Assembly: GCA_964016885.1 (NCBI GenBank)
Contig: OZ024741.1
Coordinates: 106,888,001 to 106,952,000, forward strand
DNA from: Eledone cirrhosa
Lineage: Eukaryota
Length of the DNA stretch: 64,000 nt
Direction: 5' to 3'
Positions 47,340 through 53,258 of this stretch are shown in pieces. Within the stretch, counting starts at the first letter, position 1, and the number at the start of each line of letters is the position of its first letter. The position numbers and the translations under genes were made by a program. The notes under the pieces were generated by a model that saw only the letters and a list, made by a program, of their open reading frames with translations, was not told where the DNA came from and made no database searches.

Positions 47340-47752
47340 TAGAGTATTTTGCAATACACTGCATGCTTAATTAAAAGCATTTTGAAGACCATACGCTATT
47401 GTTTTAACATAGTGACAATGTCACTTATTTAAATCTTTAGCAAACAGAGGAGATAAACTGACAGAGCTCTGTTTCGTACTTTTTGATACTTATCAAAGTT
47501 CACTACCCCTCCTGTTTGCTGAAAATTGTGTGTTGGATTCTTATAGAATTCCAGTAATAATCAGGAACTGATTATACAGAGTGGTCGCCGGTCTAGCAGA
47601 AGTTGAAAATTAGAATTGTTGCTCTGAAATAGCGATATATATATATGAATGTATATATATAAACAGGAGGGGTAGTGAACTTTGATAAGTACTAACAAGT
47701 ACGAAACAGAGCTCTGTCAGTTTATCTCCCCTGCTTGCTGAGGATTTAAAAA
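47340..47752. mobile_element. 331-nt retrozyme family: one monomer on minus (47340-47655) plus an inverted HHR segment
   Basis: Homologous to 52587-53258; HHRs at 47455-47502 (-) and 47677-47722 (+). Confidence 0.8.
47677..47722 (+). ncRNA. Type I HHR with U3-A8 core variant
   Basis: gaact TTGATAA gtact-aaca-agtac GAAA cagagctctg TC agttt. Confidence 0.8.
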
Positions 47753-48189
47753 ATTGAGATTTAAAAAAGGAGATTTAGCTGATATTTTTAGCAGCTATAG
47801 TGGCCGTGAAGATGCTCTCACGTTTGATTGCTTTGTGTATATGGTGTGGATATGGTGCGAATAAAATACATTTATGGAGTGTATAGATAAATTATTCTTT
47901 ATGTTTATGCAATATAATAACTTGCTCTGTGTTATTGGACAATGGTACCTCTTGTGTTCTTGAAATAGAAACCAATTTTATCCTAGGAGACAATTTCAAA
48001 AGAGTCCGGCATTATAAATTTATTAATAATTATTTCATAAAACGATGTGTATGAGTTATGGTGGTGGAATTATCATACATTGTAGTTATCTGCCGTGAAA
48101 ATGATGAAAATTGCGTCGTCCCATTGGTTGGTTAAATTTATGGTAAAGACATGCATTGGTTTAATGTGTACAGCATTAGTTGACGGCTA

Positions 48190-49283
48190 TTGTTGTTGTT
48201 GTTGTTGTTAGCGATAGTAGTGGTGGTGGTGGTGGTGGTGATAATGGTGGTGGTAATAGTGGTGATGGTGGTGGTGGCTGTGGTGGTGATAATGGTGGTG
48301 TTGGTGGTTGTGGTGGTGGTGGTTGTGGTGGTGGTAGTGGTTGTGGTGATGGTAGTGGTGGTTGTGGTGGTGATAATGGTGGTGGTAATAGTGGTGATGG
48401 TGGTGGCGGTTGTGGTGGTGAAAATAGTGGTAGTGGTGGTTGTGGTGGTGATAATGGTGGTGTTAATAGTGGTGATGGTGGTGGTGGTTGCGGTGGTGAT
48501 AATGGTGGTAGTGGTGGTTGTGGTGGTGATAATGGTGGTGGTAATAGTGATGATGGTGGTAGTGGTTGTGGTGGTGATAATAGTGGTAGTGGTGGTTGTG
48601 GTGGTGATAATGGTGGTGGTAATAGTGGTGATGGTGGTAGTGGTTGTGGTGGTGATAATGGTGGTGGTGGTGGTAGTGGTTGTGGTGGTGATAATGGTGG
48701 TGGTGGTGGTTGTGGTGGTAATAATGGTGGTGGTAATAGTGGTGATGGTGGTGGTTGTGGTGGTGATGGTGGTGATAATGGTGGTGGTAATAGTGGTGAT
48801 GGTGGTAGTAGTTGTGGTGGCGGTAGTGAAGTTGGTGGTGAGGGTGGTAATGATGGTAGTGATATTTGTAGTTGTATTGGTGGTGGTAGTGGTGATGGCG
48901 ATGGTAGTCCTGATTTTACTGTTGTTGTTGGTGGTAATGGTTGTGGTGGTGATGGTAGTGGTGATGATGGTAGTAGTAGTAGTGAGTGTGGTGGTGTTGT
49001 TGTTGTTGGTGGTGGTAGTGATGGTGATTGTGGTGGTGGTGGTAGTTATGATTTTACTGTTGTTGTTGGTGGTGGTAATGATGGTGGTAATGGTTGTGGT
49101 GGTGATAGTGATGTTGGTGGTGGTGATAGTTGTGGTGGTGATGGTAGTGGTGATGATGGTAGTGGTAGTAGTGCTTGTGATGGTGTTGTTGTTGTTGTTG
49201 GTGATGATGATGATAGTGGTGGTAGTGGTGGTGGTGGTAGTGGTAGTGGTGGTGGCGATAACGTTGTTGGTGTTGTTGGTAGT
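48190..49283. repeat. Degenerate (GGT)n low-complexity tract
   Basis: Seen directly; explains the Gly- and Val-rich ORFs. Confidence 0.9.
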
Positions 49284-49492
49284 GTTATCTATCTATCTAT
49301 CTAGCTATCTATCTGTCTGTTTGCATGTCTATCTCTCTCTCTCTCTCTCTCTCTCTCTCTCTCTCTATATATATATATATATATATACATATATATATAT
49401 ATATATATATATATATATATATATATATATATATATATATATATATATATATATATATATATATATATATATATGTATATATATATATGTAT

Positions 49493-49876
49493 ATACAATA
49501 TGTAGAAGAGATAACACACTAGAGAGAGAGATAGTGCGCCATCAGTCAAACAGGGAAAAACCACCAGTGTATGGAATGTATAGCTCATGGAAGGCAGATC
49601 TTTTTGGATTTGTACGTGTGTTAGATAGTTATCTTGGTATGTATTTACACTTTAATTTATACTTTTAATTATTGTGTGTCTACTCTGCCTTCCATGGCCT
49701 ATAGATTCCATACACTGGTGGTTTTTCCCTCTTTGACTGATGGCGCACTATCTCTCTCTCTAGTGTGTTATCTTTTCTACATATTGTATTATAAGGGGCT
49801 CGGGATTCCTTCTCCTTTGAGCACATTACTGAGAGGGAATAGCGAGAGTCTATGGCTCCGTTAATTTATCGTGGTA
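49493..49876. mobile_element. Inverted-repeat element with tail (arms about 49493-49597 and 49684-49789), in (TA)n
   Basis: Same arm-plus-tail layout as the HHR fold-backs, but only a CTGATGG and a hairpin, with no GAAA half. Confidence 0.6.
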
Positions 49877-51440: not shown

Positions 51441-52387
51441 CATACATTCACACACACACACACACACACACATACATACATTTACACACACACACACACA
51501 CACACACACACACACACACACACACACACACACACACACACACACACACACACACACACACATGTAGTATGTGTAGTATATATAGAGTATACAGATCCCA
51601 ATAAAGTAATCTAAAAGAACATTTCACAAGCATCTTTCCCTAGGGATACAGTCTTAGTTAAGCTACCTAAAGCTAAAAGGCTTCACTAAGTTCCCCTACA
51701 GCACTTTCTAAGTTAATAGATTGAGATGGTCACCGTTAACAGAACAATTTTTCGTCAGACAGAATTCTGTAAATTATATATAACGCCGAACGTTAAAACT
51801 ATCCTTGATACAGAGTACTCATAACCACCACTTGGATTGCCTTAAACGATATCTCGTTACACATATATATATAACCAAAATTAAATTAAGGATCTCATGT
51901 CTGAGAAACATGCGCCATACCACCTATAGAATAAGCTCAAGATTCTAAGGGATAAATCCGAGCATTTATTAGCATTAAATTAAAAATCGATTGACACACA
52001 CACACACACACACACACACACACACACACACACACACACACACACACACACACACACACACACACACACACACACACACACACACACACACACACACACG
52101 CGCACACACACACATACACACACACACACACACACACACACACACACACACACACACACACACACACACACACACACACACACACACACATATAAATATC
52201 TATATCTATATATATCTATATATATATATATATATATGTGTGTGTGTGTGTGTATGTGTGTGTGTGTGTGTGTGTGTGTGTCAATCGATTTTTAATTTAA
52301 TGTTAATAAATGCTCGGATTTATCCCTTAGAATCTTGAGCTTATTCTATAGGTGGTATGGCGCATGTTTCTCAGACATGAGATCCTT

Positions 52388-52531
52388 GCCCATTCCGAGC
52401 TGAAGATCCGCTAAGGTGAAACAATTGTTCTCGGTATAGTTAATAACTGTTGTGTAACCACTTCTACCTAACTCGTCCCTTGGACTGAGTGCTCTACCAC
52501 TACGGATATTACATTCCAGTGTTCCACCACT
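52388..52531 (+). mobile_element. Single arm plus tail of the 29173 HHR family
   Basis: HHR 52395-52434 with CTGAAGA; truncates the right TIR of the preceding MITE. Confidence 0.8.
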
Positions 52532-52586
52532 ATATATATATATATATATATATATATATATATATATATATATATGAATGTATATA

Positions 52587-53258
52587 TAGTGTATTTTGCA
52601 ATACACTGTATGCTTAATTAAAAGCATTTCGAAGACCTTACGCTATTGTTTTAGAGTAGTGACAGTCTCACTTACTTTAAATTTTCATGATTTTCAGCAA
52701 ACAGGTGGAGTACTTAGCTTTGATAAGTACCAAAAAATATGAAACAGAGTTCTGTCAGCTTTATCTCCCCTGTTTGCTGAAAATTCTAAGTAAGTGAGAC
52801 TGTCACTACTCTAAAACAATAGCGTAAGGTCTTCGAAATGCTTTTAATTAAGCATACAGTGTATTGCAGAATACACTATATATACATTAATATATATATA
52901 TCGCTATTTCAGAGCACCAATTCTAATTTTCAATTTCTGCGTGTCCGGCAACTGCTCTGCATAATCAGTTCCTGATTATTACTAGAATTACTAGAATTCT
53001 ATAAGTATCAAACATTCATAATTTTCAGCAAACAGGTGGAAAACTTAGCTTTGATAAGTACCAAAAAATACGAAACAGAGTTCTGTCAGCTTTATCTCCC
53101 CTGTTTGCTGAAAATTTAAAGTAAGTGAGACTGTCACCACTCTAAAACAATAGCGTAAGGTCTTCGAAATGCTTTTAATTAAGCATACAGTGTATTGCAA
53201 AATGTACTATATATACGTTCATATATATATCACTATTTCAGAGCAACAATTCTAATTT
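52587..53258 (+). mobile_element. Retrozyme-like tandem, 331-nt monomer (about 1.7 copies) with a 5' inverted 100-bp piece
   Basis: Two U3-A8 HHRs with GUC sites ending at 52756 and 53087. Confidence 0.85.

Follow-up and report, generated by a model that had tools for sequence, protein, structure and literature searches.

A repeat of about 320 nt with a mostly U3-A8 hammerhead core in Eledone cirrhosa, and its junctions with Hydra-clade Penelope-like elements

Natural hammerhead ribozymes whose core pair between positions 3 and 8 is U-A rather than C-G have been reported, with in vitro activity cited in the same source (Perreault et al. 2011, PMC3088659), and about 1300 of them occur in the Cercyon Penelope-like elements (PLEs) of Schistosoma mansoni (Cervera and de la Pena 2014, PMC4209133), with UUGAUAA and UUGAAAA cores given in the supplement. 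Metazoan retrozymes of the type without long terminal repeats (non-LTR) are described as tandem non-coding units in the 150-450 bp range, with a GC content of ~35% and one type I hammerhead per unit (PMC7229834; bioRxiv 10.64898/2026.07.22.740005), and the accessible text of the 2026 preprint argues for a PLE origin from co-occurrence and from homology to the PLE terminal repeat, or pLTR (Li et al. 2026). Among PLEs, the Hydra clade is defined by the DKT and CxCx5C motifs, hammerheads and insertion into (TA)n, and its hallmarks include partial tandems, inverted 5'-truncated arms and a one-sided tail of 30-40 bp (Craig et al. 2021, bioRxiv 10.1101/2021.04.23.441226). Here, a stretch of 64,000 nt from Eledone cirrhosa (contig OZ024741.1, positions 106,888,001 to 106,952,000), called the window below, was analysed for four hammerheads with a UUGAUAA core that an earlier note had read as a retrozyme with a rare compensated core and a 331-nt circle. 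The family to which they belong is real and of the retrozyme type, its core variant is already known, and its unit is not the 331-nt circle.

The four motifs are probably two insertions of a non-coding repeat of ~320 nt with a mostly U3-A8 type I core, likely a non-LTR retrozyme that is copied into (TA)n by the proteins of Hydra-clade PLEs. The repeat resembles the published metazoan retrozymes in unit size, GC content, tandem arrangement and number of hammerheads per unit, in its predicted structured circular fold, in a hammerhead that depends on the dimer as in the axolotl, and in its co-occurrence with PLEs. It differs from those described so far in its U3-A8 core, found in most copies, and in occurring mostly as insertions of 1-2 units with inverted arms and fixed ends. 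Expression and cleavage have been shown for the published retrozymes, whereas the family described here is known from sequence and folding.

The 320-nt family and its insertions in the window

Searching the 3.0 Gb genome with the window unit gave 2197 first-look candidates, 40 of which were scored, the best copies being 90-92% identical. More than 1200 hammerheads, spread over many contigs, matched the core pattern of the family. The unit has no long open reading frame (ORF), a GC content of 0.34-0.35 and a copy arrangement ranging from dimers up to arrays of ~17 and ~25 units (L031 and L032, respectively). Junctions between tandem units are seamless, and the unit closes head to tail in many loci as well as in the long arrays. 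The array of ~25 units switches strand and has a higher-order repeat with a truncated unit (132-320) in it. Fetched loci are not a random sample, having been chosen by similarity or by core pattern, the pattern-chosen ones mostly on contig C1; the cut-to-cut monomers taken from them (n=23) measure 311-331 nt, with 14 of the 23 at 319-321 nt. Rfam hammerhead models gave no match at gathering score in 4 loci, and two of these have C3-G8 cores, so the miss is not specific to U3-A8. Contigs from four runs of unknown kind only repeated the variation of the family and are no evidence either way on expression.

A structural scan of the window placed TTGATAA in a type I hammerhead frame four times, at 47490-47496 (-), 47682-47688 (+), 52720-52726 (+) and 53051-53057 (+), as the earlier note had proposed. 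The heptamer itself is not enriched and falls below chance (13 observed vs 26 expected), and the case for hammerheads in the window rests on the helices. The core N3 U4 G5 A6 N7 N8 A9 / G12 A13 A14 A15.1 / U16.1 H17 lies between three helices in all four copies, and the fold z-scores range from -2.2 to -6.1. Copy 1 reached 21.7 bits (E 0.005) with the Rfam model HH9, whose gathering score is 52; the window-wide Rfam search was dominated by microsatellite matches.

Copies 1 and 2 share one insertion, locus 1. Its inverted arm (47317..47659, - strand) consists of unit 188-314 followed by 1-210, has a short 3' end inside (TA)n 47264-47341 and carries copy 1 (47437..47522, -; core 47496-47490; predicted cut after 47460). 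The forward arm (47661..47759, +) covers unit ~10-110, has neither of the fixed 3' ends of the family and carries copy 2 (core 47682-47688; predicted cut after 47718), for which the minimum-energy fold is the hammerhead secondary structure. These copies face away from each other on opposite strands, one per arm, and so define no unit-length RNA. Locus 2 begins with an inverted 5'-truncated arm (52566..52687, -; unit 89-210) without a hammerhead, its short 3' end inside (TA)n 52531-52588, and continues with a forward arm (52690..53258, +) that is a partial tandem of one full unit and unit 1-238. The forward arm ends with a tail of ~28 nt (53231..53258, +), the stretch that separates the fixed 3' end at unit 210 from the one at unit 236-243, and is followed by (TA)n 53258-53297. 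It contains copy 3 (52696..52780, +; core 52720-52726; predicted cut after 52756) and copy 4 (53027..53111, +; core 53051-53057; predicted cut after 53087), each with a stem II of 3 bp, closed in copy 3 by a G-U pair after CpG decay.

Stem I reads AACU/AGUU in copies 1 and 2 (47.5-47.7 kb) and AGCU/AGCU in copies 3 and 4 (52.7-53.1 kb), in agreement with the covariation between loci that had been noticed. The palindromic stem III described for all copies holds for copies 1 and 2 (CAGAGCUCUG), whereas copies 3 and 4 have CAGAGUUCUG; the distal extension of stem I is present in full in copies 1, 3 and 4, whereas copy 2 has it truncated at the 5' side. The two tandem cut sites do lie 331 nt apart, and the cut-to-cut monomer between them (52757..53087, +) is private to this locus, being the 320 nt of the family norm plus a 9-nt duplication and 2 extra TA bases.

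Insertion layout and junctions with Hydra-clade elements

Copies end at unit 210 (short end) or at unit 236-243 (tail end, with a tail of ~26-33 nt) and then enter (TA)n; they are truncated at the 5' side, and an inverted arm is frequent. The entry of 3' ends into (TA)n was seen in the flanks listed for 30 loci and likewise in the window. Of the two-armed insertions in 155 loci, 73 have a fixed end on both arms, and in 67 of these one arm stops at the short end and the other at the tail end; a further 32 show some other end on at least one arm. Window locus 2 obeys this rule; in locus 1 the left end is a short end, and the forward arm reaches only to about unit 110. Partial tandems, an inverted 5'-truncated arm, a one-sided tail and a (TA)n target are features of PLE-type insertion, shared, like the hammerhead in the terminal repeat, with the Hydra clade as described by Craig et al. 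(2021), and the tail corresponds to two start sites of reverse transcription reported for an anole PLE in vitro (PMC11167929). The unit itself contains no reverse transcriptase (DKT), no CxCx5C linker and no C-terminal GIY-YIG endonuclease and is not an autonomous Hydra-clade PLE; compared with an intact Hydra-clade PLE of this genome (L109), only TA repeats matched. The 320-nt unit behaves like cargo of the Hydra clade, not like a member of it.

At 5 of the 155 loci (L049, L159, L160, L161 and L170) a retrozyme piece is joined directly to a piece of a Hydra-clade PLE. The whole insertion L049 reads (TA)n, a 5'-truncated Hydra-type ORF arm (-), a few bases, a retrozyme arm (+), its tail and (TA)n. 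L159 and L160 have the same head-to-head layout with gaps of 1 and 6 bp, respectively, in L161 the retrozyme is continued directly by a Hydra ORF whose family is that of L049 (94% identity), and in L170 it adjoins a truncated piece of a Hydra pLTR. Among one-armed 5' ends, 3 of 55 lie 1-6 bp from the start of an opposite-strand Hydra-type ORF match, for a chance expectation of 0.02, and none of the 55 adjoins the ORF of a long interspersed nuclear element (LINE); LINE matches cover 4.6% of the 155 loci and Hydra matches 3.5%. More than one Hydra family is represented among the PLE arms of the chimeras, and none of these arms is homologous to the unit. These junctions likely identify the machinery that moves the retrozyme as that of a Hydra-clade PLE. 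If so, they are direct genomic evidence of which retrotransposon mobilises an animal retrozyme, and the partner need not have a similar sequence. No report of retrozyme-PLE chimeric insertions turned up in the literature searched, including the accessible text of the 2026 retrozyme preprint.

Several neighbouring structures were seen along the way. Short repeated arms ending in (TA)n meet retrozyme 5' ends head to head in L004 (2033-2130) and in L173 (upstream of 4807) and may be further chimeras with unidentified elements. In the window, 52391-52532 (+), 28049-28667 and 29173-29431 are 3' ends from the Hydra PLE family that also occurs in two of the chimeras; there is a canonical hammerhead core near 52400, and one of these ends shares a (TA)n run with locus 2. 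Hydra-type endonuclease fragments with CxCx5C lie at 45303-45929 (+) and 58886-59749 (+), the former inside a large two-armed insertion (inverted repeat 43962-47056). A Neptune-like element beside L003 and L017 was considered as a partner and rejected, as it has its own C3-G8 hammerhead and an inconsistent orientation. Neptune-like PLEs of this kind (L003, L017, L043 and L046) have a CX4CxxC linker before GIY-YIG and a minimal C3-G8 hammerhead and end in (TA)n.

The 3-8 pair, its covariation and predicted folding

The genome-wide core states of the family are U3-A8 (1109), C3-G8 (88), U3-G8 (11), C3-A8 (10), A3-A8 (8) and G3-A8 (6), all lower bounds from a single pattern frame that needs G10.1 and intact flanks, with A3-G8 and G3-G8 outside the search. 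A Watson-Crick pair, U-A or C-G, is thus present in 1197 of 1232 matches, and the single-mismatch states U-G and C-A (21 copies) are near 1% and sit on scattered backgrounds without an amplified lineage. The compensated 3-8 swap described in the earlier note is accordingly the majority state, and the consensus is not CTGATGA. Its supposed rarity does not hold: two other, unrelated families of this genome are dominated by U3-A8 (2233 and ~13,000 pattern matches), the same heptamer has been published, and the core itself is not new. It is the compensated core of the Schistosoma and Perreault hammerheads. The Schistosoma set is minimal, with almost no helix III and mostly single motifs; the family described here, by contrast, combines a 10-nt palindromic helix III with a long distal extension of stem I and has both C3-G8 and U3-A8 members. 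Among published retrozymes no U3-A8 core turned up, the PLE paper alone reporting it, in a search that did not extend to the 2020 retrozyme supplement.

C3-G8 copies are 84-90% identical to a U3-A8 unit and belong to the same repeat. They form a subfamily with a shorter loop II, a stem III that is mostly CAGAGAUCUG and, in 87 of 88 rows, G or A rather than U at position 7. In one subgroup (L091-L096, L076, L077 and L083) a compensated A10.1-U11.1 pair replaces the conserved G-C at the base of stem II.

In an alignment of 75 distinct hammerheads the 3-8 pair is UA in 62, CG in 12 and other in 1, a count whose weight is lessened by 7 of the 12 CG rows having been added on purpose. Changes on both sides also occur in stem I (GC 57/AU 11 and CG 66/UA 4) and in stem II (UA 66/CG 5), 96% of cells are paired against 24-42% when the alignment is slid, and 9 of 24 pairs changed on both sides, a value as high in 8 of 500 shuffles; the rows are related, and this fraction is not a probability. 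A tree was built from 70 family rows, one per locus, with arrays and rows lacking a parsable core left out. The C3-G8 copies form one clade in it (17 rows, support 100/100), and when a 312-bp C3-G8 relative serves as outgroup, this clade (100/100) falls among the U3-A8 copies in the best tree. Monophyly of U3-A8 was, however, not rejected (approximately unbiased test, p-AU 0.21; long outgroup branch). The 3-8 pair truly covaries, but it does so once.

Folding was predicted with nearest-neighbour energies, which ignore tertiary contacts. Circular monomers appear highly self-paired (z -7.2 and -5.9 in the 2 tested). Single hammerheads of the main subfamily are predicted to form an inactive helix (probability ~0.97 for L007 and L018) in which stem I and U3-U4-G5 pair with the 5' half of stem III. 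In tandem dimers near the majority sequence, a double hammerhead formed through the 10-nt palindrome lies 0.7-1.4 kcal/mol from the ensemble and is the minimum-energy fold in 2 of 4 dimers folded (L018 and L003); two separate hammerheads would cost 12.5-16.4 kcal/mol. This predicted dependence on the dimer agrees with the model given in the literature for the hammerheads of PLEs and of the axolotl. The tandem pair in the window lies 4.7-4.9 kcal/mol above the ensemble and is a decayed copy that likely cuts poorly, contrary to the activity first attributed to it; copy 2, which folds well as a monomer, is without a tandem partner.

Changing U3-A8 to C3-G8 in silico worsened 27 of 28 dimers. In monomers U3C costs 2.6 kcal/mol, vs about -0.1 for controls at position 7, and a palindromic loop put into 4 copies of the C3-G8 subfamily costs 2.3-4.0 kcal/mol. 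These predictions suggest a misfolding trap as the reason for the swap: C3 would tie up the core in a perfect dead-end helix of 7 bp formed with the palindromic stem III, and the C3-G8 subfamily would escape by breaking the palindrome. Counting against it are the penalties of U3C in 7 dimers (0 to 4.8 kcal/mol, median 0.4) and the existence of 3 C3-G8 copies with the full palindrome. The trap would explain one evolutionary event, with exceptions.

The two other U3-A8 families differ in kind. The first (2233 matches, 99 of the first 100 having U3-A8) corresponds to the terminal repeat of a tandem Hydra-clade PLE of 3.54 kb (L109, C1:91473242-91487431; 1869-4028, -; unit 3542 bp), of which there are five tandem copies of the terminal motif and two listed ORFs, both intact (719 and 717 aa). 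The 719-aa ORF has the DKT and CxCx5C motifs, on which its placement in the Hydra clade rests, and found no match in Pfam or PDB sequence searches. A 299-bp tandem unit in L021 (1-1240, -) is a contiguous piece of an L109-type PLE (94% identity) that takes in the hammerhead, the 5' untranslated region and the opening 30 nt of the ORF. It is closed at a microhomology of 4 nt and, at this one locus, looks like a retrozyme arising from a PLE. The second family gave 13,208 matches within two mismatches of the canonical pattern, 0 of them exact and 86 with one mismatch, and all 14 two-mismatch rows among the matches listed are UUGAAAA, a U3-A8 core. This very abundant non-coding family (~13,000 matches; L002 2847/2921, L072 2548 and L112-L120) occurs as two-armed insertions in (TA)n. 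The 312-bp tandem family used as outgroup (L112 7255-7600 and L129-L158) appears young, with copies 98-99% identical, is ~76% similar to the 320-nt unit outside the hammerhead, and has a C3-G8 core, a minimal stem III and, where stem II begins at its base, an unusual U-U. Further canonical C3-G8 hammerheads in the window lie at 57157-57228 (-), 33474 (-)/33579 (+) and 16876 (-)/16919 (+), with short palindromic stems III and two of them as inverted pairs; the one at 57157-57228 matches Rfam HH9 at 38.6 bits.

Explanations of the family and their meaning

In the proposed mechanism, read-through transcripts of tandem copies would be cut twice by hammerheads and the monomer would be ligated to a circle by a host ligase, a step taken from the retrozyme literature (PMC7229834). 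The reverse transcriptase-endonuclease of a PLE would then nick both strands of a TA repeat, and the RNA would be copied from two fixed start points ~28 nt apart, leaving partial tandems and an inverted arm. A wider reading, for and against which the scales are level, adds that the two arms can be copied from two RNAs, the chimeras arising when Hydra-clade proteins insert a retrozyme RNA on one strand while the opposite strand receives the RNA of their own element, and that U3-A8 is kept because C3 traps the core.

Several results weigh against this account. The main alternative for the junctions is that later deletion between neighbouring TA-targeted elements made them; the three ORF junctions were noticed first and counted afterwards, loci fetched later added 26 one-armed ends, none of them at an ORF junction and 1 at a pLTR junction (L170), the short/tail rule holds in 3 of the 5 chimeras, fails in 1 and is undetermined in 1, and the fetched loci contained no autonomous element homologous to the unit. 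The 3-8 switch is a single change on the tree, which reduces the large counts to one event. Changes common to two copies of one insertion (template-level) were also compared with changes in one copy. At 9 core sites, 0 of 57 template-level changes were found vs 2.9 expected, a weak result (p 0.05), one-copy changes were depleted there too (11 of 357 vs 18.3 expected), and some changes common to both copies of an insertion disrupt stem III. Pairs were retained in 7/14 vs 24/98 at similarity-picked loci (p 0.06) and in 10/18 vs 40/142 at all loci (p 0.03), and the comparison as a whole gives modest support for selection on the hammerhead. A short element mobilised by PLEs from uncut linear multimeric RNA, with a hammerhead inherited from a pLTR that cuts slowly or not at all and with no need of a circle, would fit a core-depletion contrast that is not significant and the stem III changes. 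It would also fit an anole PLE whose insertion in vitro was unchanged by hammerhead mutants and for which no RNA-seq reads ended at the cut site, as reported in PMC11167929, and the slow in vitro cleavage of PLE hammerheads given in PMC4209133. This is nevertheless improbable: both 3-8 positions changed together while single mismatches gave rise to no amplified lineage, several stems covary, and tandem units join without a seam, as copying from a circle or from a tandem template would produce.

That the copies are truncated pLTR fragments of an unsampled autonomous PLE rather than an independent non-autonomous family accords with the insertion features, all of which are PLE features, and with the U3-A8 hammerhead in the intact 3.54-kb Hydra PLE. 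The head-to-tail closure of the unit, the different Hydra families among the chimeric arms and their lack of homology to the unit speak against it, as does the absence, in 96 loci, of upstream same-orientation non-unit sequence common to loci, a TA-separated neighbour family excepted; it is very unlikely. Active window copies that release an element-defining 331-nt circle are a doubtful proposition, somewhat less so than uncut linear RNA. Two same-strand cores with intact invariant bases do stand 331 nt apart, and copies 3 and 4 have 7 differences from the majority in common, which their template must already have carried. The spacing is private to the locus, however, stems II and III are both weakened, the predicted energy of the double hammerhead is well above the ensemble, and the 11 differences between the two copies point to decay after insertion. 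Independent decay of a canonical CUGAUGA core to UUGAUAA is favoured by both changes being transitions in an AT-rich genome, yet 1109 double-changed against 21 single-changed copies refute it, and the near-absence of U at position 7 in the C3-G8 subfamily leaves it with hardly any credence.

Among these explanations, the retrozyme copied into (TA)n by Hydra-clade proteins is preferred. The odd core changes little in itself, being published and common in this genome, yet searches that require CUGANGA would miss many thousands of hammerheads here. What raises the family above routine are the chimeric insertions and the coexisting core pairs. A family with both 3-8 pairs is a natural test of mutual constraint between core identity and misfolding. 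So far the case for PLEs as the movers of animal retrozymes has rested on co-occurrence and on homology to the pLTR. Chimeric insertions would tell which enzyme family is responsible, and since this genome also supplies an intact Hydra ORF, they would open mobilisation to a direct in vitro test.

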